64,000 nucleotides of DNA from the NCBI GenBank assembly GCA_016795505.1, contig JAEUHH010000005.1:91979-155978 (forward strand). Direction: 5' to 3'. Source of the DNA: Verrucomicrobiales bacterium. Lineage in GTDB: Bacteria; Verrucomicrobiota; Verrucomicrobiia; Verrucomicrobiales; DEV007. Position 1 is the first letter of the stretch. The number at the start of each line of letters is the position of its first letter. The notes below the pieces were generated by a model. It made no database searches. It was not told the origin of the DNA and was given only the letters and a program-made list of their open reading frames with translations. Positions 3,477-56,903 of the stretch are shown here, in pieces. Position numbers and translations under genes: made by a program.

Positions 3477-3527
3477 TTCCGATCAGACCCTGTTGGATCG
3501 GAGATGATACCCTGTTTGATCGGAAAC
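3477..3527. repeat. dispersed GATC-rich palindromic element, copy 1 (intergenic between pabB-like and GT2 genes)
   Basis: The sequence is ttccgatcagaccctgttggatcggagatgataccctgtttgatcggaaac. It is built from copies of the module ACCCTGTTKGATCGGA and its reverse complement around a central GATCGGAGATG. Confidence 0.7.
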
Positions 3528-3636
3528 CCCGCCGCGCCGGGGCGGCAGGATTTCGGCCGGCCGGCTTCAATGTCGGGTGTATCGCGGGGATTTTGCGGTA
3601 TCATGGCCCCTCCCGCCCCTTTCGAAAAAAAACCGC

Positions 3637-4890
3637 ATGCCACGACTCGCTGCCGTCATCGCCTCCTACAATCACGCGCGCTACCTGCCCGCGGCGATCG
3701 AATCCGTGCTGCGGCAGACGCGGCGGCCGGACCGCTTTCTCATCATCGACGACGGGTCGAAGGATGACTCGGTCGAAGTGATCCGCCGCTACGAAAAGGA
3801 CGGCGTGGAGCTGATCGTGCAGCCGAATGCCGGCGCCCATGCCACCTGGAACCGTTGCATCGAAACGGTGGCGCGGGACTGCGAGCTGGTGTCGATCCTG
3901 AACTCCGACGACATCTACGCGGCGGAGCGCTTCGCGAAATGCCTGCCACTTTTTGATCAGCCGGGTGCCCGCTCGGTCGTCTGCACGGGCCTGCGCATGA
4001 TCGGTCCGGACGACTCGCCGCTGGCCGCGGACGAGCCCCGCGCGCGCTGGCTGCGGGCCGCCTGGGCGCTGGGCGGCGCGCCGGTTATCACGACCTGGGA
4101 GTGGATGGCGATGGCCAACTTCGCGGTCACCAGCAGCAACATCGTCGCCCGGGCGGACTATTTGTTGGCGAACCCGTTCCGCCCCTACCGGTTCAACCAC
4201 GACTACTTTTTTCTCTCCGGCGCCGCGCTCCGTGACGAGATCGCCCTGCTCGACGAGGTGCTGCTCGACTACCGGGTGCATCCGCAGAACAACATCAACA
4301 CCAATCCCGCGCCGCTGCTGAAGGAGATGCTGCGGATGCACGTGGATCTCTACCACCACTTCGCCGCCGAGCTGGAAGCCGATGGCGCGGTGCGGGCGCG
4401 TTTTTACGACTACATGCGCGCGACTGAGCACAGCATCTCCAGCTTCCATCCGGGACTGTTCCAACTCCTGCTCGCGCGGCTGGCCGCCGGTGCCAGCGAC
4501 GAAAGCCTGGAGCAGCTCGTCGCCAGTCTCGACGAGACCCGGCTGCCGGAGCTGCATGACTATCCCAACAAGGCCCTGGTGAATGCCTGGGACGGGCAAT
4601 CGCCGCCCCAACTGGCGGTGAATCTGGCGGGAAAGTACGAAGCCGCCCGCGAGGCCCGGCGCGAGGCCGAGGCCGATCGTCAGGCGCTGCGCGATCTGGC
4701 GCGGGCGCGACGGGAGCTGCTCGATTCGAAGTGGCTGGCGCTGGGCCGCCTGTTTGGAGCGGGCCGGGAACTGAATGCCGACACCGGCAAGACGCCGGCC
4801 GAGAAGCTGGATCACCTGCGCACGGCAGCGGGCCGGTCGGCCTGGCTGCGGATGGGCCGCCGTCTGGGGGCGGGACCGCATCTGGAGTGA
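3637..4890 (+). CDS. family 2 glycosyltransferase with C-terminal coiled-coil region
   Basis: MPRLAAVIASYNHARYLPAAIESVLRQT...FLIIDDGSKDDS is the GT-A fold signature (DxD-type, GT2). The track ORF starts at 3577; the first ATG is at 3637. Confidence 0.7.
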   Translation: MPRLAAVIASYNHARYLPAAIESVLRQTRRPDRFLIIDDGSKDDSVEVIRRYEKDGVELIVQPNAGAHATWNRCIETVARDCELVSILNSDDIYAAERFAKCLPLFDQPGARSVVCTGLRMIGPDDSPLAADEPRARWLRAAWALGGAPVITTWEWMAMANFAVTSSNIVARADYLLANPFRPYRFNHDYFFLSGAALRDEIALLDEVLLDYRVHPQNNINTNPAPLLKEMLRMHVDLYHHFAAELEADGAVRARFYDYMRATEHSISSFHPGLFQLLLARLAAGASDESLEQLVASLDETRLPELHDYPNKALVNAWDGQSPPQLAVNLAGKYEAAREARREAEADRQALRDLARARRELLDSKWLALGRLFGAGRELNADTGKTPAEKLDHLRTAAGRSAWLRMGRRLGAGPHLE

Positions 4891-4899
4891 CCGGCCGGC

Positions 4900-6623: not shown

Positions 6624-7562
6624 ATGCTGGTCGGAGTGTCTCCCACCGAGTCCAGCCCGTCCGCGACGCCGGAGGTCCGCCTGCCGGACTTCCTGGCCAT
6701 TGGGGCCATGAAATGCGGCACCACCACGCTCTACCGCGACCTGCTGGGCCAGCCAGGCCTGTATCTGCCGGACAAGGAAAGCAATGCCCTGCTCGCCGCC
6801 GATCCCGCTGCCGCGCTGGCGCGATTGACCGACGGGGCGCCGGCAGATGGCCTGACCGGCGAGGTGTGCCCCGACTACACCAAGCCCGGTCTGGACCTCC
6901 GGGCGGCGGCCGCGGCGCGGCAGCTCTACGCGGGTCGCCGGGCGCCGCGGCTGATTTTCCTCGCCCGCGAGCCGATCGCGCGGTTGCTGAGCCACCATCA
7001 TTTCATCAGCACCCAGCAGGGTGCGGGCAATCCGGGCGGCATGACGCGGGATCTCGCCGCGAGCCTGCGCGATTTTCCCGAACTGATCGAGACGAGCCGC
7101 TACGCCGCGCGACTGGCACCGTGGGTCGAGGCCTTTGGCCGCGAGTCGCTGCTGGTGCTGCGGTTTGAGGATTACATCGCGGATCGGGCCGGGACGCTGG
7201 GGCGGATCGCCGCTTTCATCGGTCACCCCGGCTTTGCCGCTGCCCGCATCGAGGCCCGGCGCGTGTACAATGCCGGAGTGGCCCGGCCGGTGGCCACGCC
7301 GGGCTGGCGACGAATTCTGGGAAATTCGCTTTATCGCCGCTGGGTGCGTCCGCTGCTGCCCATCGGTCTGAGGGACCACCTGCGCGACCGGCTGCTGCCA
7401 AAAGCGCCGCCCCGGCCCTCGCCGCCCGATCGGGAAAGGCTGCGCGAGTTGGCGGAATCCCTGAAGCCCGATGTGGCGGCCCTGTCCTGCCTGCTGGGAC
7501 AGGATGAGCCGCTGTGGGATCTGGACCGGGCGGTGGAAACCCTGGCCGCGGGAGAACCATGA
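6624..7562 (+). CDS. sulfotransferase family protein
   Basis: PDFLAIGAMKCGTTTL is a 5'-PSB (PAPS-binding) loop, and RLIFLAREPIARLLSHHH is a 3'-PB-like region. The start is ambiguous (ATG at 6552, 6579 or 6624). 6624 is chosen so that the PSB loop sits about 20 aa from the N-terminus. Confidence 0.7.
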   Translation: MLVGVSPTESSPSATPEVRLPDFLAIGAMKCGTTTLYRDLLGQPGLYLPDKESNALLAADPAAALARLTDGAPADGLTGEVCPDYTKPGLDLRAAAAARQLYAGRRAPRLIFLAREPIARLLSHHHFISTQQGAGNPGGMTRDLAASLRDFPELIETSRYAARLAPWVEAFGRESLLVLRFEDYIADRAGTLGRIAAFIGHPGFAAARIEARRVYNAGVARPVATPGWRRILGNSLYRRWVRPLLPIGLRDHLRDRLLPKAPPRPSPPDRERLRELAESLKPDVAALSCLLGQDEPLWDLDRAVETLAAGEP

Positions 7563-9016
7563 GCGGCCATCTGTCCCAGCCCAGAGGTCCGTTCGCCCGC
7601 CCGGTGGGCGTTTTTGCCGTGGCGGCGGCCGCCCTCGCCGCTTCCCTGGCCACGGCAGCGATGCTGCGCGACGAGCGTTTCGTATTTCTCGCGACCGGCC
7701 TGTGGGCGCTGGCCCTGATGCTGGTGCCCTACGCGCGCGCCGAGCGGCCGGGACTGTTCTCGGTGTGGTCCTTCGTCGTACTCACCGTGGGCATCGGGGT
7801 GACGGCCCGCGGGGTCTGCCTCACGCTCGGCTATCCCGAGGCCGGGCGGCTCGATGAGTTGTATTTCCGCGGACGGGAGGCGGCGTTTTTCTTCGAGCCG
7901 GCGCTGGCCCTGCTGACGGGATTGGGAATGCTCGTGCTGGGGCACGAATGGCGTGTCCGTCGTCCGGGCCCGGTGGACCTGGCTCCGGTATGTCCGGATC
8001 GACTGCGTCTCGTCTGTGTGGCGGTGCTGGTAGTTTCGGCGGCAGCTACCTGGCTTTACGTGTCCCGCACTGGCGGCTGGCAGGGCGGCGACTGGTCGGG
8101 CAAACGCACGCCCATCCCCGGCCTCGACGTGGCGGGCACAGGCTACCAGAGCCACGGGGGACTGCGCTTTGCCGCTTCGCTGGCGGGCTTTGGCCATGTG
8201 CTGGCTGTGGCGGGATGGTTTGCCGCCCCGGCAGGAAGGCGGATCGGTTGGGCCGTGCTGGCGGCCGCCTTGCTGCTCGTGGCGGTGGCGGTGCCTTTCC
8301 ATGCCAGCCTGCGCACGCCGCTGGTGCTGTTGCTGGTCCTGCCGGCCGCGATGGTCCATCTGGCGGGCCGGCGCATCCGCCCCGCAGCCCTCGCGGCGAC
8401 GGTGGTGGCGGCGCTGCTGGCGATCCAGGTGATGACGGTCCTGCGAAACTCGGGTAGCGACCGCGACGCCGCCATTGACCCGCCGACGCCGGCGGCGCTG
8501 TTTGATGCGGCCGTGCTGAACCGCAATCAGATCGAGCTGCCGAAAACCGCGCACCTCTATCACGCGGTGCCGCGGGAGCTGCCCGTCGCCTGGGGCGCCA
8601 CGGTGGCCCGCTGGGTGCTGGCGCCGATCCCGCGCAGCCTCTGGCCCGACAAGCCGGTGATCCAACCCGGTCCCATCGTCGGACAGACCCTGTACGATCA
8701 GCCGATCGCCGGGGTGCCGCCGTCGCTGGTGGGCGAGCTTTTTTGGAATTTCCACTGGCCGGGTGTGATCATCGGCGCCTTCCTGATCGGACTGGCTCTG
8801 CGGATGGTGGAGGCGGTCTTCCAACCGATCCGGGGCGGCGATCCGATGCGGGCGGCGCTCTTCGTGGCCGGACCCATGACGATGGGTTTCGAAATGGTCG
8901 GCGGCAGCATCGGGTCGGGCCTGTTTCGCGGATGCCTTCAGACAGCCGTCATGCTGGGCCTGCTGTGGCTGGCCCAGGATCTAAGCCGCGTTCGCCATTC
9001 CTCTGTCCCGAGATGA
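7559..9016 (+). CDS. O-antigen/oligosaccharide repeat-unit polymerase-like (Wzy-type) polytopic membrane protein
   Basis: It has about 10-12 predicted TM helices with a large periplasmic loop and no other motif, and it sits between glycosyltransferases in a polysaccharide cluster. There is an ATGA overlap with the upstream sulfotransferase (7559-7562). Confidence 0.5.
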   Translation: MSGHLSQPRGPFARPVGVFAVAAAALAASLATAAMLRDERFVFLATGLWALALMLVPYARAERPGLFSVWSFVVLTVGIGVTARGVCLTLGYPEAGRLDELYFRGREAAFFFEPALALLTGLGMLVLGHEWRVRRPGPVDLAPVCPDRLRLVCVAVLVVSAAATWLYVSRTGGWQGGDWSGKRTPIPGLDVAGTGYQSHGGLRFAASLAGFGHVLAVAGWFAAPAGRRIGWAVLAAALLLVAVAVPFHASLRTPLVLLLVLPAAMVHLAGRRIRPAALAATVVAALLAIQVMTVLRNSGSDRDAAIDPPTPAALFDAAVLNRNQIELPKTAHLYHAVPRELPVAWGATVARWVLAPIPRSLWPDKPVIQPGPIVGQTLYDQPIAGVPPSLVGELFWNFHWPGVIIGAFLIGLALRMVEAVFQPIRGGDPMRAALFVAGPMTMGFEMVGGSIGSGLFRGCLQTAVMLGLLWLAQDLSRVRHSSVPR

Positions 9017-12410: not shown

Positions 12411-13471
12411 CCGCGTGCGCCGTTCTGCCAGCCGGACCGATGACTCCCCTCGACAGCATCCTCCTCTTTGGTGCCGTGGCCATTCCCGCGTGGCTGGCGG
12501 GATTCCCCCTGCGCGGCTGGCTGGCCCGGCGGGGCATTCTGGACCTGCCGAAAGCCTATTCGAGCCACGACCGGCCGGTGCCGCGTGGCGGCGGGCTGCT
12601 GGTGGTGGTGGCTTTTTTCGGCTGGTTCTTTTTCGGCAGCCATGAAGACCTGCCCGCGATCGGCTGGGTGGGGCTGGGCACGCTGGCGGTGGCGGCGATT
12701 TCTTTCCGCGATGACATCCAGCACCAGTCGCGGCGGCTGCGATTCGCCATCTACACGGTGGCGGCGGCGATCTTCGTCTTTGCCCTGCGGCATCATCCGG
12801 CGTTTGGCGCGTGGGGGCCCTTCTGGCTTTTCGCCCCGTGGCTGTGGCTCTGGGTGGCGGGATATGCCAATGCCCTGAACTTCATCGACGGCATCGACGG
12901 TCTTGCCGGTTCGCAGGCGGTCGGGGCCCTGCTGTTCGGTGCGGTGATCTGCCTGTTCGCGGAGCCCACCGGCGCCGCGGGGGAATTGGCCGCACTCCAG
13001 CTCGTGCTCGCCGGGGCGATGGCGGGTTTCCTCGGCCACAACCTGCCGCGGGCGCGGCTCTTCCTCGGGGATGTGGGCAGCATCGCGACCGGTTTTTTGC
13101 TCGCGGCGGTCGCGGTCCTCGCGGCCCTCACTCTGGGCTGGCAGGTCGGACTGGCGATGGCGGCGCTGCACCTCGGACCGGTGCTCGACACCGGCATCAC
13201 GCTGCTCCGGCGGATGATCCAGGGGCAGCCGGTCTACGAGCGCCACCGGGAGTTTTTCTTTCACCGCGCCATCCGGTCGGGCCGATCACATCTCTCCGTG
13301 ACGCTCACCGAGGCCGCGATCCAGGCGGGCGGGGGCGGACTGCTGCTCGTCGCCTGCCAACAGCCGGTGCCCACGTTTTTCCTGGCCATCGGCGGACTCG
13401 CCGCTGTCTGGCTGATCTTTTTCGGCTGGTGCGAATGGCGTTTCCGCCGCAGTCGGGTTGCCGGAAAATAG
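12407..13471 (+). CDS. polyprenyl-phosphate sugar-1-phosphate transferase (WecA/MraY family, GT4 of PNPT superfamily), likely initiating enzyme
   Basis: NALNFIDGIDGLAGS and the LGDVGS motif are present with about 10 TM helices. The start is either GTG at 12407 (GTGA overlap) or ATG at 12440. Confidence 0.8.
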   Translation: MTACAVLPAGPMTPLDSILLFGAVAIPAWLAGFPLRGWLARRGILDLPKAYSSHDRPVPRGGGLLVVVAFFGWFFFGSHEDLPAIGWVGLGTLAVAAISFRDDIQHQSRRLRFAIYTVAAAIFVFALRHHPAFGAWGPFWLFAPWLWLWVAGYANALNFIDGIDGLAGSQAVGALLFGAVICLFAEPTGAAGELAALQLVLAGAMAGFLGHNLPRARLFLGDVGSIATGFLLAAVAVLAALTLGWQVGLAMAALHLGPVLDTGITLLRRMIQGQPVYERHREFFFHRAIRSGRSHLSVTLTEAAIQAGGGGLLLVACQQPVPTFFLAIGGLAAVWLIFFGWCEWRFRRSRVAGK

Positions 13472-18597: not shown

Positions 18598-19716
18598 ATG
18601 AAACCCACCCTCTATCTCGGCACCCGCAAGGGTCTCCTCTCCGTCGTTCGCGGCCCAGGCGGCTGGGAAATCGAACGAATGTCCTTTCTCGGCGTTCCTG
18701 TCCCCATGCTGCTGCCGGACGGGCGCGCTGGCACGCTCTACGCGGCGGTCGAGCACGGGCATTTCGGGTCGAAATTACACGCTTCGGTCGATGGCGGCGC
18801 GACGTGGGAGGAGCGGGCCTGCCCGGCTTTTCCTCCCAAGCCGGACGACTATCCGGACGTGTTGAATCCCATGAGTCAGATGCCGATTCCCTGGACGCTG
18901 AAGACCATCTGGTCTCTCGAAGCGGGTGCGGCGGATGGCGATCTCTGGTGCGGCACCATCCCTGGCGGATTGTTCCACTCGCGGGACCGCGGAGCCTCCT
19001 GGCGCCTGGTGGAGAGTCTTTGGGATCATCCCGGCCGGGGAAAATGGTTCGGCGGCGGCGCCGACTGGCCCGGCATTCACAGCATCCTCGTCGATCCGCG
19101 CGACCGGCGGCGGGTGCTGCTGGCGGTGAGTTGCGGCGGCGTGTGGGAATCGCGCGACGACGGCGCCACCTGGCACAACATCGGCGAGGGACTGCGGGCC
19201 GATTTCATGCCGCCCGACCAGGCGGGTGATCCGGGCATTCAGGACGCCCACCGCATCGCCTGGTCCCTCTCGGATCCCGACACGATCTGGATGCAGCACC
19301 ACAACGGCATTTTCGTCAGCCGCGATGGCGGCCGGCACTGGAGCGAGATCGAAAACGCCGCGCCTTCAGCCTTCGGCTTTGCCGTCGCGGTGCATCCCGG
19401 CGACCCGCAGACAGCGTGGTTCATCCCCGGCATCAAAGACGAATGCCGGGTCGCCTGCGATGGCGCGCTCTGCGTGACGCGGACCCGCGACGGCGGCGCC
19501 ACCTGGGAGGCGCTCCGCGAAGGTCTGCCCCAGCAGCACGCCTACCACTTGGTTTACCGTCACTGTCTCGATGTGACCGGCGACGGCCGGACTCTGGCCT
19601 TCGGCAGCACCACCGGCAGCGTTTGGATCAGCGAAGACGGCGGAGACTCCTGGCAACGCCTCAGCGCGGAACTGCCGCCGGTCTATTGCGTGCGATTCGG
19701 TCCGGAAAAGGCCTGA
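18598..19716 (+). CDS. BNR/Asp-box repeat beta-propeller protein (sialidase-like/glycosyl-hydrolase-like)
   Basis: Repeated S-x-D-x-G-x-T-W motifs are present (SVDGGATWEE, SRDRGASWRL, SRDDGATWHN, SRDGGRHWSE, TRDGGATWEA, SEDGGDSWQR). Confidence 0.65.
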   Translation: MKPTLYLGTRKGLLSVVRGPGGWEIERMSFLGVPVPMLLPDGRAGTLYAAVEHGHFGSKLHASVDGGATWEERACPAFPPKPDDYPDVLNPMSQMPIPWTLKTIWSLEAGAADGDLWCGTIPGGLFHSRDRGASWRLVESLWDHPGRGKWFGGGADWPGIHSILVDPRDRRRVLLAVSCGGVWESRDDGATWHNIGEGLRADFMPPDQAGDPGIQDAHRIAWSLSDPDTIWMQHHNGIFVSRDGGRHWSEIENAAPSAFGFAVAVHPGDPQTAWFIPGIKDECRVACDGALCVTRTRDGGATWEALREGLPQQHAYHLVYRHCLDVTGDGRTLAFGSTTGSVWISEDGGDSWQRLSAELPPVYCVRFGPEKA

Positions 19717-34477: not shown

Positions 34478-34493
34478 CCGACCTGCCGGGGTG

Positions 34494-34545: not shown

Positions 34546-34550
34546 TGAAA

Positions 34551-39099: not shown

Positions 39100-39138
39100 G
39101 GGGATCTGGAACGTGGGAAAGGGCTTTCCGATTGTCGA

Positions 39139-39720: not shown

Positions 39721-39921
39721 GAGTGCGTCAGCATAGACCCGGACCGGCCCGTGCGTCAGTGCGGGAATGAGGCGGAAAACCTGCGCTTTTCCGTCATGAT
39801 CGCGAAAGTCAAGCAGGCGCCCAAGTGGTCGGAAAACGGACTATTTAAGCCCAATTCGGCGCGGCGATTTCTGTGAAAGCCAGTTGACGGCCAGTCTACC
39901 TGCGGTTTTTCGTCACGTCGC

Positions 39922-41079
39922 ATGTCTGGCCGCAGTCCCGCCATTCCGCGGGTCGCCCTGCTCATCGAGACGACCCGCAGCTACACCCGCGACATCCTCG
40001 CCGGGGTGCGCCGCTACGTCGATGAGTTCGGCCCGTGGTCCACATACATCGAGCTGCGCGCACCCGATTCAGCACCGCCGCCCTGGCTGATGAACTGGGA
40101 CGGCGATGGCATCCTGACGCGGACCTTCACCCCGGAGATGAACCGCGCCGTGGCAGCCACCGGTCTGCCTGCCGTCGAACTGCGCTCCACCAGTCTGCCG
40201 CACGACCGGCCCTTCGTCGGCGTGGACAACGGTCTCATCGGCCAGTCCGTCGCCGAGCACTTTCTCAATCGCGGTTACCGGCAGTTTGCCGTCTATGGGC
40301 TGACCAGCGAGGCCTTCTTCATCGAGCGGATCGACAATTTCGTCAGCCGGCTGCGGCGCGGCGGCTTTCCCTGCGTCACCCTGCCGGCAAATGATTCCGA
40401 CCACCCCGCGGACTGGGAGCGGCATCAGGCCCGGCTCATCGCGGCTCTCCGCGGCCTGCCCAAACCCGTGGGAATCTTCGCGGCCAACGACCCCCTCGGC
40501 GTCCACCTGCTCGATGCCTGCCTGCGGGCCGGGCTCGCCGTGCCCGAGGAGATCGCCGTGGTCGGCTGCGAGGATGACGAGACTCTCTGCACGCTGGCTA
40601 CGCCTCCGCTGACCAGCGTGCGCCTCGATGGCCGGCGGGTCGGCTACGAGGCGGCGCGCCTGCTCGACGGGCTGATGCGGGGCGGTCAGCGTCCGGCGAC
40701 GCCGCTGTTGCTGCCGCCGCGCGGCATCGTGACCCGCCAGTCATCCGACGACCTGGTCATCACCGATCCGCTGGTGGCGCATTGCTGCCGCCTCATCCGG
40801 GAAAAATTTCCCAGCGGACTGGGTGTCGCCGATCTCTGTGCGGCGGTGAACGCCTCCCGCAGCACCCTCGAGCGCCGCATGAAGGCCGCCATCGGCCGCA
40901 CTCCGAAGGAGGAGATCCAGCGGCTCCGCTTCCGCGAGGTCGAGCGTCTGCTGCGCGAGTCGGACCTCACCCTCGAAGCCATCGCCGAAAAGACCGGCTT
41001 CGTCAGCGCCAGCCATTTCCAGAATGCGTTCCGGGAGCGCCACGGCATCACGCCCGGCCGGTTCCGTCGCGGCGGCTGA
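39922..41079 (+). CDS. XylR-like transcriptional regulator (periplasmic-binding-protein-like sensor domain + AraC-family HTH)
   Basis: The N-terminal LacI/PBP-like fold (RVALLIETTRSYTRDILAGVRRY...GVDNGLIGQ) is followed by a C-terminal AraC HTH (STLERRMKAAIGRTPKEEIQRLRFREVERLL...SHFQNAFRERHGITPGRFRR). It is divergent from the DJ-1/isomerase/cytochrome/dehydrogenase operon. Confidence 0.85.
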   Translation: MSGRSPAIPRVALLIETTRSYTRDILAGVRRYVDEFGPWSTYIELRAPDSAPPPWLMNWDGDGILTRTFTPEMNRAVAATGLPAVELRSTSLPHDRPFVGVDNGLIGQSVAEHFLNRGYRQFAVYGLTSEAFFIERIDNFVSRLRRGGFPCVTLPANDSDHPADWERHQARLIAALRGLPKPVGIFAANDPLGVHLLDACLRAGLAVPEEIAVVGCEDDETLCTLATPPLTSVRLDGRRVGYEAARLLDGLMRGGQRPATPLLLPPRGIVTRQSSDDLVITDPLVAHCCRLIREKFPSGLGVADLCAAVNASRSTLERRMKAAIGRTPKEEIQRLRFREVERLLRESDLTLEAIAEKTGFVSASHFQNAFRERHGITPGRFRRGG

Positions 41080-41123
41080 TCAAACAGGGTAGCATCTCCG
41101 ATCCAACCCTGTTTGATCGGAAA
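41078..41123. repeat. dispersed GATC-rich palindromic element, copy 4 (starts within the stop codon of the XylR/AraC-like gene; convergent gene pair)
   Basis: The sequence is gatcaaacagggtagcatctccgatccaaccctgtttgatcggaaa. The central part is in the opposite orientation to copy 5. Confidence 0.7.
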
Positions 41124-41131
41124 TTGGCCGG

Positions 41132-43708
41132 TCAGGCGCCCGGCTCCGCGGACAGGAAAGCCAGCAGGTCGCGCAGCTCGCGGTCGGTCAGCAGGGCGGG
41201 CAGGCCGGGTGGCATCAGCGAGGTCTTCAGCTCGGTGCGCTCGACGATTTCCTCCGGCTTGAAGGAGCGTTCCCGGCCAGTGATGTCGCGGAATACCTCG
41301 GTGCTGGAAGATCGCAGCAGGATGCCGAGAAATCCGGTGCCATCGGCGAGGGTCAGTTGGGTGGGGTAATACTGCGGGGCGACCTCGCGATGGGGCTCGA
41401 GGAGGGATCGGAGCAGGCCCTCGCGATCGCTCTGTCTGCCGATCAGGCTGAGATCGGGGCCGACCACGACGCCGCGGCCACTGTGCCGGTGACAGGTGCC
41501 GCACAGGGCGATCCGGGAGTGGAAAAAGAGGCGTCGGCCCGCGGCTAGATCGGCGGGGCCGGGCACGGCGTCGAGACGTCTCAGCCAGCCGGCGGTGTCG
41601 TCGAGGCCGGGCCGCCCGGCCTGGATGGACGAGGCGTCGGTGACGGCGGCAACGAGCGGGGTGGCTTCGGGATGGGCTTCGGCCACCGGTTGCAGCGCCG
41701 CCTTTGACGACTCGTCGAGTGGGACGAGCCGCAGGGCGCGCAGGGCTTCGTCCCGGAGGCCCGCGTCTGTGTCAGTCTTGGTGGCGAGGCGGATGAGCAG
41801 CGCCTGGTGCTCCGGCACAGTCGATCCGGCCAGTCCGACGACGGCTTCGGTGCGGGCGGCGGCGGGGCGCTGCGCATCGGAGGCCACCTCGGCCAGGACG
41901 GCCCGGGCGTCGTCGGCTTGGCGTGCCGCGAGGGTGCGGATGGCCTCCAGCGCGAGATCGGGGTCGCCCGCATTGAGCAGTTCGCGCAGCAGAGGCACGG
42001 TGATGCGGGCGTGGGTCGCCGGAGCCAGCCTCAGGGCATAGCCCCGGAGCCGGGCCGGGGTCTGCGGATCGGCGATGCGGTCGGCGAGCACCTCGGGATT
42101 CGTCACGCCGGCCCCGGGATCGCCCCGGAGGGTGTTCCACGCGGCGAGGCTGGCTTCGAACAGTCGGTAGTCGAGCGCGGGATCGCGGAGCAGGGCTTCG
42201 ACCTCTTTTTGAAAATCGGTCAGTACGGCGTCGGCGATCCAACGGAGGCATTCGAAGCGGATTTCGGGATCGGGATCGTCCCAGAGGGCGCGCACCCATC
42301 GGCCATTGGTCAAATCGACGCGTCGCAGGGCCACCAGGGCCCAGACCCGGTCGGCGGCGGGCAGGGCGCGGACGGATTCGGGCGTCCACGAGGCGCTGCG
42401 CTTTGCCAAGGCGGTTAGGGCGGCGTCGGCAAGATAGCGATCGTTGCCGCGGACGAGCGCAAAGAGCCGGGCCTCGTCGAGGTCGGCTTTTCCGCTCCGC
42501 AGATCGCGGGCGAGCCGGCTGGAATCGGTCTCGGGAGAGCGCTCCCGCTGGATCCATTCCGCCGCGGCCCGGTCGATCTCAAGCTTCCAGAGCCGGCCGC
42601 GGGCGTGAATGGGATAGGAACTGAATACCCAGTCCGTGAGGTAGAATGAGCCGTCCGGCCCTGCCGCCAGACCGACGGGACGGAAGTGGTCGCCGCCGCT
42701 GACGAGGGCGTGCCGCTCGGAGCGAAAGCCGGCGCCGTCGCGGGTGAGGGGGTAGTAATCGACCCGGTGATCGCTCCACGAGGGAATCAGCAGGCCGCCG
42801 CCGAGTTCCACCACCGCGCAGGGGCCCTCTCCGCTGGGATGGACCATGCCGAGCGTGCCGCGCAGTTCGCCGTTCCACGCCACGAAGGGATGCACCGCCG
42901 AGCTGCCATAGACCCACTGAAAGCCATAGTCGGCGCCTTCGACCACGTTAAGCAGGCGGCACGGCGGCCGGCTGCCGGGGTCGTTTTCGGCTGCGAAGAT
43001 CTCGCCATCGTCGCGGACGAAGAGGCCGAAGGGATTCCAGAACCCCTGGGCAATGCGGCGCATCTCCCGGCCGTCGGGGGTGCAGCGGAAGACGCCGCCT
43101 TCGCCGCGCCCCTTTTCCTCAGAGCCGTCGCGGGCGGAAAGCACCCAATCCTTCCCAAAATTCTCACCCAGCGAGAAGATGAGCGCCCCGTCGGGATGCC
43201 AGGCCATGCCGCTCAAGCCGTTGTGCGGGTAGTCGGCCACGGTGTCGAGGGCGGCGAGCGTCTCCTCGACATCGCCTTTCCCGTCGCCATCGCTGTCGCG
43301 GACGCGGAGGATGCGGTCGCGCTCGGCGAGGTAGACCCAGCCGTCGGGACCGAGGATGAGCTGCATGGTGGCCTCGGTCCGGTTGTAGAAAACGCGGCGG
43401 TTTTTGCCGTCCTTGTCAAAGACGAGGATCTCGTCGTGCTCGGGCCCCTGATAGCCCTCGGGACGGAAATGGGTGTGGCAGGCCACCAGCCAGACGTCGC
43501 CGCGGTCGTCGACATCGATGCCGGTGGGCGTGACGAGGTCGGGATGCTCGGCCAGGAGCGTCAGCTTTACGCCGGGCAGCCGCGTCTCGATCTTGGGCGA
43601 GAGGTCGTCGGGCACCACCGGTGCCTTGGGCGGCGGGGCGCCGGGAGGCGCGGCGATGGCGGCCAGCGGTAGGAGGAGAAAAAGCGGCAAAGATATGGCG
43701 ATTCTCAT
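41132..43708 (-). CDS. PVC-type haem-binding protein: sorbosone-dehydrogenase-like beta-propeller + HEAT repeats + C-terminal cytochrome c domain
   Basis: It has a signal peptide, DSDGDGKGD loops, HEAT-like Ala/Leu repeats and a C-terminal CGTCH haem-binding site. The start is trimmed to the ATG at 43708. Confidence 0.7.
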   Translation of the reverse strand: MRIAISLPLFLLLPLAAIAAPPGAPPPKAPVVPDDLSPKIETRLPGVKLTLLAEHPDLVTPTGIDVDDRGDVWLVACHTHFRPEGYQGPEHDEILVFDKDGKNRRVFYNRTEATMQLILGPDGWVYLAERDRILRVRDSDGDGKGDVEETLAALDTVADYPHNGLSGMAWHPDGALIFSLGENFGKDWVLSARDGSEEKGRGEGGVFRCTPDGREMRRIAQGFWNPFGLFVRDDGEIFAAENDPGSRPPCRLLNVVEGADYGFQWVYGSSAVHPFVAWNGELRGTLGMVHPSGEGPCAVVELGGGLLIPSWSDHRVDYYPLTRDGAGFRSERHALVSGGDHFRPVGLAAGPDGSFYLTDWVFSSYPIHARGRLWKLEIDRAAAEWIQRERSPETDSSRLARDLRSGKADLDEARLFALVRGNDRYLADAALTALAKRSASWTPESVRALPAADRVWALVALRRVDLTNGRWVRALWDDPDPEIRFECLRWIADAVLTDFQKEVEALLRDPALDYRLFEASLAAWNTLRGDPGAGVTNPEVLADRIADPQTPARLRGYALRLAPATHARITVPLLRELLNAGDPDLALEAIRTLAARQADDARAVLAEVASDAQRPAAARTEAVVGLAGSTVPEHQALLIRLATKTDTDAGLRDEALRALRLVPLDESSKAALQPVAEAHPEATPLVAAVTDASSIQAGRPGLDDTAGWLRRLDAVPGPADLAAGRRLFFHSRIALCGTCHRHSGRGVVVGPDLSLIGRQSDREGLLRSLLEPHREVAPQYYPTQLTLADGTGFLGILLRSSSTEVFRDITGRERSFKPEEIVERTELKTSLMPPGLPALLTDRELRDLLAFLSAEPGA

Positions 43709-43733
43709 CTCAATGGGAATGCTTCGGAATTGA

Positions 43734-44600
43734 TCAACTGGCTTTGGCTCTCTCCAGCGCGGCGGCAATTTCGCGCTCGATGACGTCGAGGGAGTTCAGC
43801 AGCGTGGTCGGATCGGGGACGGGGGTGACTTCATTGGTCACCGGATCCCAATTGACCGGGCCGTAGCGGCAGGGCTCGGGGTTGCCGGTGAGGATATGCG
43901 CGCCGGCATCGCCCTTGTTGAAGTGCCAGAACTCGAAGGGGAAGTGCATGAAGCCCCGCGCCTCCATGACGGCGGTGATGGCGAGGCGGTTTTCCAATTC
44001 CTCAGCCGTGATGTAGGGCGAGCGCATGGGGGTGCGCTCGCTCATCTCGAGATAGGGCACCCCGCGCCAGACTTCGCCGCCGCCATCCCGCCGGAAAACG
44101 GAGATGTCGATGGCCGATCCGGACATGTGGGTGCCGATTTTGGGCATGTTCGCCGTCAGGACGATGGCGCGGCGGAAGACGAACTCGGGCGTGGGGATCT
44201 CGCCACCGAGTTCCCAGAGACACTTCTTCAGCACATTGTCGAAGACGGAGGGCCGGCGAACGAGCTGGCGCTGCATCTCCAGGGTGCGAAAGCCGTCCTC
44301 GATTTTCAGCACCCAGCCGCGGGCATTCATGTCCCGGCCGGCTTCGACGACCTCGCGGGCGAGCGACTCGCGCATGAAAAAGACGCGGTCGAGATCGCCG
44401 GCGATCTTCGAGGTGGAGAAAAGCATCTCCACTCCGGCGGCGGCGGCGAGGTTGGGCAGCGAGGCGAATCCCTCGCCGCATTCGGCCACGGGGAAGGCGA
44501 TGAGTTGCTCGACCATGGCATAGCCCTGCTCCATCTGTTCAGTCCAGTAGGCGCGGCGGGCCGCCTGATCGGCGTGGTCCGGGGAAAGTTCGGTCGTCAT
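43734..44600 (-). CDS. M15-family D-Ala-D-Ala dipeptidase-like zinc peptidase (VanX-like)
   Basis: HMSGSAIDIS (SxHxxGxAxD zinc-ligand motif), the downstream EFWHF motif and an upstream ...R...E... region are present. The start is trimmed to the ATG at 44600. Confidence 0.65.
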   Translation of the reverse strand: MTTELSPDHADQAARRAYWTEQMEQGYAMVEQLIAFPVAECGEGFASLPNLAAAAGVEMLFSTSKIAGDLDRVFFMRESLAREVVEAGRDMNARGWVLKIEDGFRTLEMQRQLVRRPSVFDNVLKKCLWELGGEIPTPEFVFRRAIVLTANMPKIGTHMSGSAIDISVFRRDGGGEVWRGVPYLEMSERTPMRSPYITAEELENRLAITAVMEARGFMHFPFEFWHFNKGDAGAHILTGNPEPCRYGPVNWDPVTNEVTPVPDPTTLLNSLDVIEREIAAALERAKAS

Positions 44601-44729
44601 GATGGCCTCATTTTCCCGCCTTCCCCCCGTCTCTGGCAAGCCGCGGATGGGACCGAATCGCGCGGGGGAAGGCGGAATCCTCCGAACGGGACGTTGAATC
44701 CGGGGCCGAAATCAGGTAGGATCGACCTC

Positions 44730-45524
44730 ATGCCGCCGAAGAACAATCCGTTTCCGGGGATGAATCCCTTTTTCGAGCTGCGTTGGCCGGATGTCCATTC
44801 GCGCCTGATCGCCTATATCGGCGACGCGTTGTCGGATGATTTGCCATCGGACCTCTCCGTGCGGGCCGAGGAGCATGTCGTGGTGGCGGGCCCCGAGGGC
44901 GACTCGGCCTACCGATCCGATGTGGCCATCCGGGAAGGATGGCAAAATGGCTTCCCGCCCCTTTGGCAGCCGGAGACCGAAGGCGCCGCAGTGATCGCAG
45001 TGGCCGACCCCGAGATCGTTCTGGCAAGTCCTGTGATTGAGCGCTGGCTGGAGATCCGCGATCGCGATGGCCGTCTCATCACGGCGATCGAGGTGCTGAG
45101 TCCCCGGAACAAGGAGGGCAATGGCCGGGTCAGCTATCTGGAAAAGCAGGTCGATTACATTTCCTGCGGAGTGAATTTGGTGGAAATCGATCTCGTTCGC
45201 GCCGGACTCCCCACGGTGGCTGCCGCGCGCGCCATGGTGGGCGAGGTCCAGGGGACGGAGTCGATCATCTGCGTGACCCGCGCTTCGCGGTCGGACCGGC
45301 ATGAGGTATATCGGACGCCCCTGCGCGAGCCGCTGCCGGCGTTCCGGGTGCCCTTGCGGGAATGCGACCCCGATGTGCCTCTGGCTCTCCAGCCGCTGAT
45401 CGACCGTTGCTACCGCACCGGTCGCTACTGGCAGATCAGCCAACCCTTTGCCCTGCGCAACACGCTGTGGGTGGACGAGATCGAGTGGGTAGAGCAGCGA
45501 CTGGCTTCCGCCGGAGGGGAATGA
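44730..45524 (+). CDS. DUF4058-family protein
   Basis: The N-terminus MPPKNNPFPGMNPFFELRWPDVHSRLIAYI matches the characteristic MPSPFPGM(D/N)PYLE..W..H start of DUF4058 proteins. The track ORF 43896..45524 is trimmed to the ATG at 44730. Confidence 0.65.
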   Translation: MPPKNNPFPGMNPFFELRWPDVHSRLIAYIGDALSDDLPSDLSVRAEEHVVVAGPEGDSAYRSDVAIREGWQNGFPPLWQPETEGAAVIAVADPEIVLASPVIERWLEIRDRDGRLITAIEVLSPRNKEGNGRVSYLEKQVDYISCGVNLVEIDLVRAGLPTVAAARAMVGEVQGTESIICVTRASRSDRHEVYRTPLREPLPAFRVPLRECDPDVPLALQPLIDRCYRTGRYWQISQPFALRNTLWVDEIEWVEQRLASAGGE

Positions 45525-45571
45525 AACGGCGGTGAGTCCCTGCAGCCGAATTTTTTTGGCCAGGCGCCGGT

Positions 45572-45623
45572 TTTCCGATCAAACAGGGTTGGATCGGAGA
45601 TGAGACAGGGTCTGATCGGAAAG
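45572..45623. repeat. dispersed GATC-rich palindromic element, copy 5 (between convergent DUF4058 and DUF1501 genes)
   Basis: The sequence is tttccgatcaaacagggttggatcggagatgagacagggtctgatcggaaag. Confidence 0.7.
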
Positions 45624-45644
45624 GGCCGGGCAAAGCGGGATCGC

Positions 45645-47057
45645 TCAGACGACCAATTCCGGAATCGGCTTGCCGTGATCGACGATGGGCGTCGGGCGGC
45701 CGTTGAAGTCTTCGATGGTGATCTTTGAGGAATCGATGCCGAGGTGGTGGTAGATCGTGGCGAGGAAATCGCCGGGACCGCAGGGGCGCTCGACGACATC
45801 TTCGCCGCGTTTGTCGCTGGCGCCGATGATGCCGCCGGTTTCGATGCCGCCGCCGGCCCAGACGTTGGAAAAGGCACGGGGCCAGTGGTCGCGGCCGGGC
45901 TGGAGGGTGCCGGCGGGGGCGCTGGCATCGCCGGCTCCGGTGCTGCGGTCGAAGCTGATCTTCGGTGTGCGGCCGAACTCGCCGGTGACGACGACGAGGA
46001 CGCGCTTGTCGAGGCCGCGGGCATAGATGTCCTCGATGAGGGCGGAGACGGCGCGGTCGTAGTTCGGCATGCGGAAGCGCAGGGCTTCGAACTGGTGCTG
46101 GTTCACGGCGTGGTCGTCCCAGTTGCCGACGCGTCCGCAGAGGGGACCGCTGAGGCTGCTGGTGACGATCTCGACACCGGCCTCGACGAGGCGGCGGGCG
46201 AGGAGGAGCTGCTGGCCCCAGCGGTTGCGGCCATAACGGTCGCGGATGGCGGGATCTTCCTTGCTCAGGTCGAAAGCGTCGCGGGTCTGCGGATTGGTCA
46301 GCAGGGTCATGGCCTGGCTCTCGAATTCATCGAGCGCGCCGAGTTCGCCCTCCTTGTCGAAAGCGCGTTCGAGTTTGTCGAGGTTTTTGCGCAGCAGGAC
46401 ACGGTCGCTGAGGCGGCGGGTCTCGGCGGCGTCGGAGAGGCCGATGTTCGGCACGGTGAAATTGGGCCGGTTCGGGTCGTCGCTGACGGAGAAGGGCGCG
46501 AAGGCATCACCCAGGTAGGCGGGGCCGTTGTATTCGAGTGGGGGATTGACACCGATGTAGTTCGGGAGCGGATGGGAGCGCTTGCCATCCTTGGACCGCA
46601 GGTAGTGGGCGACGGACATCCAGTCGGGGAGGCGCGGCTTGGGCTTGTCGCGCTCGTCACTGTCGCCGGAGAGCATCTGCATCGAGCCCGCGGGATGGCC
46701 ACCGGCCTTTTGGTTCATCGAGCGGACGATGGTGAACTTGTCGGCGATCTTGGCATTCATCGGGAGCAACTCGGTGAGCTGCATGCCGGGCACGTTGGTG
46801 GAGATGGTCTTGAAGGGGCCGCGGTACTCGCTGCCGATCTCGGGCTTCGGATCGTAGGTGTCGACGTGGGACTGGCCGCCCGGCAACCACACCATGATGA
46901 TGGCTTTCCGCTCGCTGCTGGAGAGCAGGGCGTTCTCGGCCCGCAGGCGCATCAGGCTCGGCCACGACAGGGAAGCGAAGCCGGTGAGACCGATCTGCAT
47001 GAAACCGCGTCGGCTCAGCGGGCCGCTGCAGTGGAGGAGGGGCGAGGTGGCTTTCAT
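45645..47057 (-). CDS. DUF1501 domain protein (sulfatase-like, Tat signal)
   Basis: The Tat-like N-terminus RRGFMQIGLTGFA is followed by IIMVWLPGGQSHVDTYDPKP and VVVTGEFGRTP, hallmark DUF1501 blocks. Confidence 0.85.
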   Translation of the reverse strand: MKATSPLLHCSGPLSRRGFMQIGLTGFASLSWPSLMRLRAENALLSSSERKAIIMVWLPGGQSHVDTYDPKPEIGSEYRGPFKTISTNVPGMQLTELLPMNAKIADKFTIVRSMNQKAGGHPAGSMQMLSGDSDERDKPKPRLPDWMSVAHYLRSKDGKRSHPLPNYIGVNPPLEYNGPAYLGDAFAPFSVSDDPNRPNFTVPNIGLSDAAETRRLSDRVLLRKNLDKLERAFDKEGELGALDEFESQAMTLLTNPQTRDAFDLSKEDPAIRDRYGRNRWGQQLLLARRLVEAGVEIVTSSLSGPLCGRVGNWDDHAVNQHQFEALRFRMPNYDRAVSALIEDIYARGLDKRVLVVVTGEFGRTPKISFDRSTGAGDASAPAGTLQPGRDHWPRAFSNVWAGGGIETGGIIGASDKRGEDVVERPCGPGDFLATIYHHLGIDSSKITIEDFNGRPTPIVDHGKPIPELVV

Positions 47058-47222
47058 GGGCTAAAGATGAAGGGGTGGAACGCGATGATTCCCGGAGAGA
47101 TCGCACGATCCGCCCGTTTTTGTGCCTCAACCAGCCGCGTGATCCCGCTATCGGTCGGAGGGGGCTTCCGGGGCGGAAAAGTCCTCGCCGACCCGGTGTT
47201 CCGTGTGGCATGCTGCCGACCG

Positions 47223-54155: not shown

Positions 54156-54212
54156 GTTGGCACTTTTCCGCTAAATTCCCGCCGCCGCAAGGTTCCAAAA
54201 TCCCATCGTCTC

Positions 54213-56768
54213 TCACCGCACCACGCGAAACTCCGCGCTGGCGATGAGCATCTGGCAAAAGCTGGTCCAGCGCGCCTCGCGAAGCGCCTCGGGCGTGGCC
54301 GGCTCTTTCGATCCGGGGGTGGTGAGGGTCTCCTCGGGCCGGCTCACATAGGCGACGCCCCGTTGCAATTCGGCTGCCGAGGGTTCGCGGCTGTAGGCGA
54401 GCGCGTAAAGATGCCGCACCCGGGCTTCGTCGCTGGCGAAGCGGGTCTCGTCCAACACGCGCCGCGCCGCATGGGCGGCCTGCTCCATCACCCAGGGGCT
54501 GTTCATCAAAAAGAGCGCCTGTGCCGGCACGATGCTTTCCTCGCGCCGGGCCACGGTCCGGTCCGGCGGGGCAAAGTCGAACAGACTGAACATCTCCGGC
54601 AGGGTGCCGCGCACCACGGGCAGATACACGCTGCGATGGGTATCCACGATCATGTCCACCGTCAGGAATGGCTTGAAGGAATGCAGCTCCGCGTCGCGTT
54701 GCGGGTGAAACCGGCTCAGGAACGGCTCCCGCGGCGGGTAGGGATCGAGCTGTCCGCTGAAGTCGAGGATGGCATCGCGCAACACCTCGACCTCGACCGG
54801 GCGCGGCGTCATGCGCCAGAAATGGGTGTTGTCCGGATCGCGCTCCAAGTTCGCGGCATTCCCATCCGTGCTCATCCGATAGGCGCGGCTCAGCGCGATC
54901 TCGCGGATGAGCTTTTTCACCGACCAGCCTTCCTCCATGAAGCGCACCGCCAGATAGTCGAGCAGTTCGGGATGCGTCGGCGCGGCGCCCGTGACGCCGA
55001 AATCGTCCGGCGTCATCACCAGCGCGCGTCCCATCAGATGCTGCCATACCCGGTTCACCATCACGCGGGCGGTGAGGGGATGGCTGCGATGGGTGAGCCA
55101 CTGGGCCAGTTCCAACCGGCCACTCTGGTTTTTCGAAGGCGGCGACGCACCGGGAAGGTTGACGACCTGGAGAAAGCCGCGCGGGACGGGATCGCCGAGG
55201 TTCGTGGGATCGCCCCGCACATGGATGCGGCTGTCGATGATCGTTTCGCGGTCGCGGGCGCCCATGGTCCAGCCCGGCTGGGGAGGTGCCGCATCCTGCA
55301 GATCGGCCACGCCTTTTTCAAGCACGGTGATTTTCCGGTTCCAGTCCTCGATGTCGGCGAGCAACTTGTCCCTCTCGGCCTCGGCGGCGGCCTTTTCCTC
55401 CGGGGTTTTTGCGTTGTCGATCTTCAGCTTGGCGTCAGGCTGGCGACGCTGGAGGCGATAGCGGTCGCTGCGAGCCGTGTGCATCGTCAGCGTGTCGGCG
55501 TCGAGCTTTTTGTAGTAAGCCAGAGCGGCCGGTGCCAGGGTCGAGGCTTCCGGCCCGATGGCATGCCATTCGGTGTGGTGAAACATCGTTGCCTTGATGC
55601 CCCGCGGCCCGTAGCCATAGAGCGGCAACGTGCTGCGCAGGATGCCGGCCAGGGCGTAGTAGTCCGCCGTCGGGATCGGGTCGAATTTGTGGTCGTGGCA
55701 GCGCGCGCAGGCGACCGACAGCCCCATCACGCCGCGGCCGATGGTCTCGATCTGCTCGTCCACGACATCCATCCAGTAGAGGTCTTGCTTTTGTTCCTCG
55801 TAGGCCTTCGCTCCGAGGGCGAGGAAGGCCGTGGCCGTGAGCCGCTCGTCGCGCTGGGCCGCATCGCGAGCCGGCATCAGGTCGCCGGCGATCTGCTCGC
55901 GCAAAAATTCGTCGTAGGGCTTGTCGGCATTGAACGATGCGATCACGTAGTCCCGGTAGCGCCACGCGTGGTAGAAAATCACGTTCCGATCACGACCGTT
56001 GCTGTCCGCATAACGCGCCACATCCAGCCAATGCCGTCCCCAGCGCTCACCAAAGTGGGGAGACTCCAGCAGGCGGTCGATAGCCTCGTCGAGAGCGTCT
56101 GCCGTCGATCCCGCGGCCAGAAAAGCGGCCCGATCTTCCGGCGTCGGAGGCAGGCCGGTCAAATCGAGGTGCAGCCGGCGGAGCAGCGCCTCGGGATCGG
56201 CTTCGGTATTGGGCGCCAGCCCGGCGGCCTCGAGTTTCGCGAGGACGAAGCGATCAATCGCTCCGGCCGGCCACGCGGCATCCCGCACCGCCGGCTCGGC
56301 GGGCAACCGGGGCGGGATGAGGGACCAGAATTGCCGGCCCGCCTCGAGGCTCATGCCTGGCTTTTTCGCCGCCGGAGTGGGGCTTCCGTCGCGCGGATCG
56401 GCCGCCCCGTCCCGAATCCATCGCTCAAAGTCGGCGATCACGGCCGCAGCGAGTTTTTCCTCCTTCGGCGGCATGGCGAGGTCCTTTGCGTCATGTCGCA
56501 GGGCCCGCAGCAGCAGGCTCTTTGCAGGATCGCCCGGCACGATGGCCGGACCGGAGTCGCCGCCCCGCAGCAGTCCGTCGCGCGAGTCGAGCAGCAGGCC
56601 GGCTTTGAGCTTCCCCTGTTGTTGTGCCTCAGTGGAGTGGCAGGACTGGCATTTTCCGACCAGCACCGGCCGGATCTTGGATTCAAAAAAGGCGATCTGC
56701 TCCGGGGCCGATGCGGACACGGCGGAGGCTCCGGCGAAAAAGCCGATCAGCAGCAGGGGACGAATCAT
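54213..56768 (-). CDS. PSCyt1/PSCyt2/PSD1 (DUF1549/DUF1553) domain protein with N-terminal cytochrome-c-like CxxCH
   Basis: After the signal peptide come VGKCQSCHS (PSCyt1), the DUF1549 block RRLHLDLTGLPPTPED...FL, and a C-terminal DUF1553 region. The start is trimmed to the ATG at 56768. Confidence 0.85.
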   Translation of the reverse strand: MIRPLLLIGFFAGASAVSASAPEQIAFFESKIRPVLVGKCQSCHSTEAQQQGKLKAGLLLDSRDGLLRGGDSGPAIVPGDPAKSLLLRALRHDAKDLAMPPKEEKLAAAVIADFERWIRDGAADPRDGSPTPAAKKPGMSLEAGRQFWSLIPPRLPAEPAVRDAAWPAGAIDRFVLAKLEAAGLAPNTEADPEALLRRLHLDLTGLPPTPEDRAAFLAAGSTADALDEAIDRLLESPHFGERWGRHWLDVARYADSNGRDRNVIFYHAWRYRDYVIASFNADKPYDEFLREQIAGDLMPARDAAQRDERLTATAFLALGAKAYEEQKQDLYWMDVVDEQIETIGRGVMGLSVACARCHDHKFDPIPTADYYALAGILRSTLPLYGYGPRGIKATMFHHTEWHAIGPEASTLAPAALAYYKKLDADTLTMHTARSDRYRLQRRQPDAKLKIDNAKTPEEKAAAEAERDKLLADIEDWNRKITVLEKGVADLQDAAPPQPGWTMGARDRETIIDSRIHVRGDPTNLGDPVPRGFLQVVNLPGASPPSKNQSGRLELAQWLTHRSHPLTARVMVNRVWQHLMGRALVMTPDDFGVTGAAPTHPELLDYLAVRFMEEGWSVKKLIREIALSRAYRMSTDGNAANLERDPDNTHFWRMTPRPVEVEVLRDAILDFSGQLDPYPPREPFLSRFHPQRDAELHSFKPFLTVDMIVDTHRSVYLPVVRGTLPEMFSLFDFAPPDRTVARREESIVPAQALFLMNSPWVMEQAAHAARRVLDETRFASDEARVRHLYALAYSREPSAAELQRGVAYVSRPEETLTTPGSKEPATPEALREARWTSFCQMLIASAEFRVVR

Positions 56769-56851
56769 AAGCGGCTGGAAATGCCGCCAGAATACCCGAA
56801 TCCGATCGCAAACCAATCCCGCAACCGCGGAGGACCTCCCGGGCCGGACGG

Positions 56852-56903
56852 TTTCCGATCAAACAGGGTTGCATCGGCGATCATACCCTGTTTGATCGGA
56901 AAC
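56852..56903. repeat. dispersed GATC-rich palindromic element, copy 6 (between the UbiA-like gene stop and the PSD1-family gene start)
   Basis: The sequence is tttccgatcaaacagggttgcatcggcgatcataccctgtttgatcggaaac. Confidence 0.7.

Follow-up and report, generated by a model that had tools for sequence, protein, structure and literature searches.

The six palindromic elements scattered over a 64,000-nt stretch of DNA from a Verrucomicrobiales bacterium (GenBank assembly GCA_016795505.1, contig JAEUHH010000005.1, positions 91,979 to 155,978 of the forward strand; hereafter the window, numbered from its first nucleotide) belong to a Verrucomicrobiales-wide family of mosaic interspersed palindromes of about 51 nt, which is apparently undescribed. 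Our search of the literature found no description of a motif of the AACAGGGT type, the core sequence of the units that make up these elements; the motif given by a Verrucomicrobia LexA study is reportedly TGTTC-N4-TGTTC, which differs from the AACAGGGT unit. We favor, with about even confidence, the view that the elements are selfish or neutral interspersed palindromes, comparable to the Rickettsia palindromic elements (RPEs) and to the repetitive extragenic palindromes and bacterial interspersed mosaic elements (REP/BIME), and that they multiply by templated copying.

The window contains exactly six elements, corresponding to twelve 22-nt units (chance ~0.01 to 0.07), and these are the copies listed in the initial annotation of this DNA, whose coordinates were confirmed by arm, module, repeat-finder and position-weight matches (copies 1 to 6 in order of position). 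The 18-mer arm TTTCCGATCAAACAGGGT has 10 matches in the window at up to 3 mismatches, where 0.01 are expected, and the 16-nt module has 11 at up to 2 mismatches, where 0.07 are expected; no shuffled sequence equalled either count, and all arm and module matches are confined to the six intervals. The repeat finder returned the same elements as the top family of the window. A position-weight scan built from the units recovered twelve units at 29-45 bits, all within the six elements, while no further unit was found in the window, the next best score being at most 10.4 bits against a null maximum of 11.6. The 7-mer ACAGGGT/ACCCTGT occurs 13 times in the window, which has a GC content of 62-71%; 11 of these occurrences lie inside the elements, whose one remaining unit (in copy 2) has AGAGGGT instead. 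An independent sign of repetition comes from k=31 Logan contigs of the window species, assembled from other samples (several Sequence Read Archive runs), which break off precisely at the arms shared by copies 4 (L176 and L177, both ending inside the element), 5 (L178, ending inside) and 6 (L050, ending at the edge), and read through the more divergent copy 3, whose sequence in L176 is identical to that of the window. A protein of 100% identity (MBL9150985.1) is present in an NCBI Verrucomicrobiales metagenome-assembled genome (MAG).

Pooling 146 half-elements from many genomes defined the unit as CGAWCS-AACAGGGT-NNRN-TCG, 21-22 nt in length, of which AACAGGGT is an 8-nt core that is invariant across Verrucomicrobiales lineages. 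Within each element of the window the two cores lie exactly 22 nt apart, and conservation ends about 9-11 nt outside them. The ends of the unit are inverted copies of one another and adjacent units share the junction palindrome TCG-n-CGA; hence, a unit can sit either way round on a fixed 22-nt lattice. Two units placed tail to tail (cores +-) make a 51-nt hairpin-forming element, as in copies 3, 4, and 6, while two placed head to tail, with cores in the same orientation, make the direct-repeat form of copies 1, 2, and 5. Hairpin-type copies carry 18-nt terminal inverted arms, whereas in direct-repeat copies the shared sequence is limited to the outermost 10-11 nt. The initial annotation had ascribed the same arms to all six copies, which holds exactly, for both arms, in copy 6 only; its description of a module used in both orientations, with an inner hexamer and center inverted between copies, was apt and corresponds to a unit flipped without disturbing the lattice. 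The strict 22-nt lattice and the order-wide core had not been recognized there. The elements end in TTTCCGATC / GATCGGAAA in the window and in TTTACGATC in other lineages, and the stem has TTT on its 5' side and AAA on its 3' side.

The same architecture recurs throughout the order. A collection of genomes was scanned with a single-unit pattern, which yielded matches mixed with chance hits; among the matches listed, all those that had a second core exactly 22 nt away belonged to Verrucomicrobiales or Akkermansiaceae MAGs. In metagenomes, the pattern GATCNAACAGGGT-N15-ACMSKGT admits eight possibilities for the second 7-mer, and yet 124 of 132 matches carried the core there, either as ACCCTGT (87, hairpin) or as ACAGGGT (37, direct), the remaining six permitted 7-mers together accounting for 8 matches. 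The family is found on more than 120 metagenome contigs and in related MAGs, and the host lineages that share the invariant core and the 22-nt spacing span 49-68% GC. Core spacings of up to 100 nt at the metagenome loci are exactly 22 nt in 139 of 150 cases, with a minor 54-nt class that represents whole elements in tandem. The architectures are +- (86), ++/-- (38) and arrays of three to five units, a five-unit array in L009 having been found by the genome scan; the -+ order is nearly absent (one or two cases), likewise among copies that the search pattern had not selected. Since copies recur in other genomes, the dispersed family proposed in the initial annotation stands; its emphasis on GATC does not. 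Elements of the window carry 1 to 3 GATC sites (copy 3 has one) rather than 2-3, the arms of other lineages bear GTTC/GAAC or AGTC/GACT in place of GATC, and identity outside the core is 0.68 within the window vs. 0.49-0.52 against other lineages. Judged from these sequences, GATC richness is a local lineage dialect and not a family feature.

Matches of 45-51 nt to the consensus are unreachable by point mutation, which argues that copies are made from existing copies. We propose that a templated process, such as single-stranded-DNA-hairpin/HUH-type transposition or gene-conversion-like copying, would generate new copies, that slippage on the 22-nt lattice would alter the number of units, and that copies would then decay through mutation. 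Decay can be followed at copy 2. JGI contig L183, from a related organism, has, within 25 kb, five elements that share the dialect of the window, including an orthologue of copy 2 at the same site (13388-13439) in an ATPase gene that is 92% identical to that of the window at the nucleotide level. The L183 orthologue is nearer to the family consensus than the window version, indicating that copy 2 is decaying in the window, and its drift proceeded at about the same rate as that of its gene (90% vs. 92% identity, window vs. L183). The same contig contains a three-unit element between divergent genes (3550-3625), and the synteny between the window and L183 ends exactly at copy 3. Density is uneven as well, with one element per 5-10 kb here and about one extra element per 26 kb in other loci, and no core 7-mer was found in 25 kb of Haloferula helveola. 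Together, decay, patchiness, dialects and variation in unit number fit a birth-and-death repeat. Copies are found right after stop codons, of which they sometimes supply the stop itself (as copy 4 does), or in frame in surface loops and linkers; possibly, these are the survivors, retained where they do little harm.

The in-frame copies deserve particular attention. Copy 2 encodes FQSDPVASEIRPSLIGN in a hypervariable linker, and this peptide is absent from homologues at or below 74% identity. In other genomes, genic copies lie in genes confirmed by Pfam: a penicillin-binding protein (PBP; L021 and L127, same site), a squalene-hopene cyclase (L026 and L078, same site), a MenD-like enzyme with two tandem 18-aa copies (L081), a sulfatase (L116), a PSD1 protein (L155) and a DUF7133/cytochrome c protein with two copies (L139). 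All of these are read as xIQQGxFxExTLLDR, the frame equivalent to FPIKQG...TLFDRK; copy 2 uses another strand and frame. The initial annotation had regarded the FPIKQG...TLFDRK translation as contamination of spurious open reading frames (ORFs), which it is in part, but family members are read in that frame in real proteins as well. The cyclase site, compared in 120 homologues, shows near-consensus, decayed, multi-unit and absent states, most homologues being without the consensus, and in an AlphaFold2 model of the cyclase (mean pLDDT 88.7) the element peptide forms a low-confidence loop between two helices. In an Hsp70 gene (L091 4275-4325, and also in L098), a full direct-repeat element, CGATCGAACAGGGTTGGATCGATGAATCAACAGGGTTGGATCG, stands where DnaK natively has the segment AGL...IDEV, immediately ahead of VILVGG, with a net length change of only +2 aa. 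We also observed a variant peptide, QGCLYDxTxLDR, which recurs with its DNA in a Dxr-like reductoisomerase and in a CarboxypepD_reg-domain protein, unrelated to each other (L164 7438-7488, L170 319-369, L181 10213-10241 and L183 17491-17540); for each protein, two organisms have it at one and the same position.

Several of our results weigh against a mobile repeat spread by templated copying. Among 72 distinct elements, matches resembling target-site duplications (k = 2-5, offsets 4-19) occurred at the level of shuffled controls, no conserved target sequence flanked the elements, no transposase adjoined any of about 170 elements, and no clean filled-vs.-empty site was found between close relatives. 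Some metagenome matches are due to chance and lie in conserved coding sequence (e.g., that of aldehyde dehydrogenase on L073 and L126). The arms show weak base-pair covariation, at about the level expected from column composition except for one central pair. Moreover, in Hsp70 and PBP the element stands in the place of the native loop with a net gain of about +2 aa or less, so simple insertion is inadequate there. Finally, copies at orthologous sites in PBP and cyclase genes keep exact cores though the genes themselves are only ~65-70% identical at the DNA level between genera, which selection on a DNA motif fits as well as re-homogenization does.

The main rival explanation builds on these last points. 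The elements may be arrays of double-stranded binding sites for an order-wide host protein, such as a nucleoid-associated or chromosome-organizing factor or a domesticated transposase, with one protomer per AACAGGGT unit, two helical turns apart, and with the sites kept by selection and not by mobility. The constancy of the 8-nt core and of the 22-nt spacing in lineages of such different GC content would be expected of binding sites, as would the fact that spacings of 22, 32, and 54 nt set the cores on the same helix face, and that polarity counts, +- and ++ being found and -+ nearly never. Retention of the cores in orthologous genes with diverged flanking codons, weak covariation, which suggests that sequence outweighs pairing, and the lack of net insertion in Hsp70 and PBP agree with it too. 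However, sites kept by selection should not decay as freely as copy 2 has in comparison with L183, or as the consensus that is gone from most cyclase homologues; nor would their density be so patchy, and templated copying would still be required for the 45-51-nt consensus matches. We identified no candidate protein. On balance, we consider this alternative possible but unlikely. Under the reading that we favor, too, a core without variation and an almost missing -+ order imply that a protein conserved across the order reads the unit with a defined polarity. In a bolder version, the units would be the operator lattice of a sequence- and polarity-specific protein conserved across Verrucomicrobiales, and this protein, or a process that it drives, would write 51-nt palindromes into the genome, coding sequence included, where they would overwrite native loops in one tolerated frame. 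We rate this version as rather unlikely; if true, it would represent a templated "loop-replacement" mechanism apart from DDE and known HUH transposition, and would make protein-coding palindromes general beyond Rickettsia.

Returning to templated copying of a selfish or neutral repeat, the question is which machinery could be involved. The initial annotation had suggested a miniature inverted-repeat transposable element (MITE), but target-site duplications were absent at every offset and no target consensus emerged, which disfavors a classical DDE MITE, and neither a parent insertion sequence (IS) with the same ends nor solitary arms beside a transposase gene were seen among the Verrucomicrobiales matches. 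A related proposal was a second REPIN/MITE family, mobilized in trans by a second REP-associated tyrosine transposase (RAYT) or IS200-like Y1 transposase encoded elsewhere in the genome. Short, high-copy palindromes near 3' ends would be typical of such a family, HUH/Y1 enzymes likewise leave no target-site duplications, and a dependence on polarity would suit an enzyme that reads a hairpin together with a guide sequence. The genome does code for an enzyme of this class: a RAYT (Y1_Tnp) gene lies within 29677-30588 (-), with seven copies of a different REP, GGGACCGCAGGCGTCCCGCC, around it (three to one side, four to the other). As the initial annotation had stated, this REP is unrelated to the palindromic elements; it is confined to 29732-30881 in the window, and the palindromic elements do not flank the RAYT gene. 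This is the sole RAYT seen, no RAYT homologue having been found in ~970 kb around 134 element-bearing loci, which is a weak negative. The defining feature of the REP super-families is a tetranucleotide, GTAG or CGTC, that marks one stem-loop end (PMC3733652), and neither of the two is present at the element termini. Furthermore, the core spans an order whereas REP families are usually species-specific, and direct-repeat forms and arrays of up to five units are atypical of REPINs. A second REPIN/MITE family is, in our view, decidedly improbable. The copies of GGGACCGCAGGCGTCCCGCC around the RAYT gene include a 121-nt tandem duplication (30615-30735 / 30768-30888). The whole RAYT/REP cluster (~1.25 kb, 29677-30888) is absent from L183, where 17 nt separate the same two genes, which points to a lineage-specific gain or loss.

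The preference for the 3' ends of genes, noted previously, was borne out. Each intergenic copy in the window lies within 0-47 nt of at least one stop codon. The genes on either side converge at copies 3, 4, and 5 and run co-directionally at copies 1 and 6, that is, three of the five intergenic copies are convergent rather than the four reported in the initial annotation; the placement "mostly at 3' ends" holds for these five, while copy 2 lies inside a real gene. At the metagenome loci, where gene calls were rough and ORF-based so that context counts are indicative only, 56 elements were co-directional, 24 convergent, 17 divergent and 55 "inside" genes, several of the latter being spurious ORFs or chance coding matches (the aldehyde dehydrogenase matches in L073 and L126, and also L100 and L131). 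With similarly rough calls over all loci, the median distance from the upstream stop codon to the element edge was 16 nt, with about half of the values between -10 and +20 nt. Direct-repeat copies showed no significant strand bias relative to the upstream gene (14 vs. 6, with crude gene calls).

Such positions, together with very stable hairpins, might suggest transcription terminators or 3'-end RNA stabilizers that evolved in place, their repetition reflecting a shared optimal hairpin, and copies 0-50 nt past a stop codon are found in L183 as well as in the window. RNA folding of the +- copies 3, 4, and 6 indeed gave long hairpins (-27 to -43 kcal/mol, z down to -10), but the direct-repeat copies 1, 2, and 5 fold weakly (z -0.3 to -2.4 for copies 1 and 2). 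No U-tract follows the stem; on both strands the U residues are 5' and AAA follows. A terminator scan of 33800-47200 called no element, contrary to the terminator-like behavior suggested earlier, and Rfam 15 gave no match to the elements at the gathering score, copy 6 yielding sub-threshold matches to generic miRNA-precursor hairpins only. Copies between divergent genes (L183 3550-3625) and inside genes are likewise at odds with terminators, and a purely structural role would not bar the -+ order. The pairing of the arms mostly reflects sequence conservation and not covariation, so we make no claim about RNA structure. We consider a terminator or stabilizer origin very unlikely. In the window, the main physical consequence of the elements is probably that transcripts carry a strong stem-loop at their 3' ends.

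A last alternative is that the core resembles a DNA uptake signal (DUS/USS type), accumulated via biased uptake and recombination. A short conserved core with lineage dialects, inverted pairs located 3' of genes, a favored reading frame inside genes and genic copies that add no net length are all features that such signals would share. DUS and USS occur at a density of roughly 1 per kb; the elements studied here, at ~0.1-0.2 per kb, are about tenfold sparser. In addition, the core is almost never solitary (11 of 13 7-mers in the window stand in lattice pairs), and uptake would account neither for the conserved 21-22-nt unit, the rigid lattice and the 51-nt whole element, nor for the consensus matches that imply templated copying. 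We find this explanation highly improbable.

Among the known repeats, the selfish or neutral palindromes that we propose resemble RPEs most closely in behavior. RPEs, which are interspersed palindromes, occupy non-coding DNA but also enter unrelated housekeeping genes in frame, to which they add a conserved peptide (PMC10969869). The Verrucomicrobiales elements are likewise palindromic and interspersed, with non-coding and in-frame genic copies, and neither family has a known transposase. RPEs may be found at one site in the orthologues of several related lineages, decayed in a part of them; Verrucomicrobiales copies also occupy the same sites in orthologues of related lineages and are decayed in some. 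Unlike RPEs, which measure ~100-150 bp and reside in an obligate intracellular alphaproteobacterium, the elements described here are 51 nt long, built from flippable 22-nt units, carried by free-living Verrucomicrobiales and mostly intergenic, just past stop codons. Comparison was by behavior and length only, and given the lengths, homology to RPE-1 to RPE-10 is very unlikely. With REP, BIME and REPIN sequences the elements share short, many-copy imperfect palindromes that are mostly extragenic, at gene 3' ends or between operon genes, mosaic units in both orientations and genome-specific sequence flavors; they differ in lacking a GTAG/CGTC head, in not flanking the RAYT of the window, and in their order-wide core, direct-repeat arrays and coding copies. 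The hairpin form with terminal inverted repeats recalls MITEs and Correia, ERIC and BOX elements, and the modular make-up with a variable number of internal units is BOX-like; occasional in-frame fusions with host ORFs have been described for bacterial MITEs and modular repeats (PMC10969869). However, 51 nt is at or below the lower size limit of MITEs.

Translated interspersed palindromes in housekeeping proteins have been documented mainly for Rickettsia (PMC10969869). The family described here would add a second, unrelated group of protein-entering palindromes, in free-living and partly culturable Verrucomicrobiales, widespread in environmental metagenomes. Its small and sharply defined unit, with an 8-nt core and a 22-nt lattice, makes it a tractable system in which copying, the reader protein and the reshaping of protein loops could be addressed. 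In practical terms, the repeats fragment short-read assemblies and seed long spurious ORFs in high-GC genomes, and gene callers could be misled by them at stop codons.

The individual copies in the window are as follows. Copy 1 (3476-3527) is of the direct-repeat type, with both cores reading ACCCTGT (3487 and 3509, minus orientation) and a predicted RNA fold of -19 to -21 kcal/mol; the stop codon of a chorismate-binding-enzyme gene (2117-3454 +) lies 22 nt before it and a GT2 glycosyltransferase gene (3577-4890 +) begins 49 nt after it. Copy 2 (26251-26301), a direct-repeat element that is partly decayed (AGAGGGT, GATTGG), is in frame within a gene for a 1719-aa DUF3686/AAA "DNA repair ATPase" (24528-29687 -). 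Copy 3 (34494-34545; -27 kcal/mol, z -3.6 and -5.2) starts 16 nt past the stop codon of a CII-like gene (33983-34477 +) and ends 5 nt from that of a DUF7133 gene (34551-36386 -). In copy 4 (41073-41123; -28 to -31 kcal/mol) the left arm, CGGCTGATC, is degenerate and includes the TGA stop codon (41077-41079) of an AraC/XylR-like gene (39922-41079 +), as the initial annotation had noticed; the stop codon of a DUF7133/HEAT gene (41132-43768 -) is 8 nt away. Copy 5 (45572-45623), a ++ element folding at -24 to -27 kcal/mol, lies between two stop codons, that of a DUF4058 gene (43896-45524 +) 47 nt before it and that of a DUF1501 gene (45645-47057 -) 21 nt after it. Copy 6 (56852-56903) forms a near-perfect hairpin (-42 to -43 kcal/mol, z -8.8 and -10.1), whose stem is lengthened by the flanking bases GGACG / CGTCC; a UbiA gene (56934-57893 -) stops 30 nt upstream of it, and 35 nt downstream of it a PSCyt/PSD1 gene (54213-56816 -) starts. 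Just upstream of this UbiA gene is a tRNA gene (58027-58098), the sole match in the window at the Rfam gathering score. On viral contigs, the search gave a single match, an unrelated perfect terminator-like palindrome that stands beside a tRNA gene.

The gene preceding copy 1 is accompanied by an element elsewhere, too. In L155, a single degenerate unit, AACTAGGGTGTGTTCGAAAAC, is found directly after the stop codon of the orthologue of the chorismate-binding gene (~120-170, reverse strand), and in L084 a multi-unit array lies ~250 nt past the orthologue; hence, an element is present downstream of this gene in three lineages, the window included.

A candidate seventh copy at 8655-8705, initially picked up by an inverted-repeat match and a core 7-mer, was rejected, as its position-weight score of 8.9 bits is within the null range. 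It encodes DKPVIQPGPIVGQTLYDQ, which is present without any indel in 34 of 34 O-antigen-polymerase-like homologues. The segment belongs to an O-antigen-polymerase-like gene (7514-9016 +) and reads VIQPGPIVGQTLYDQ in the lineage of the window and VIPPGPEIGRTVYGQ in most homologues; in this element-rich lineage both its DNA and its peptide are nearer to the element consensus than in other lineages, which may be due to chance or to partial conversion by element copies. Another repeat of the window is found in an ORF at 18598-19716 (+), where a 43-nt coding repeat (RDDGATWHNIGEGL-like) is present three times (19153-19675); this ORF probably encodes a BNR/Asp-box-type repeat protein, unrelated to the palindromic family.

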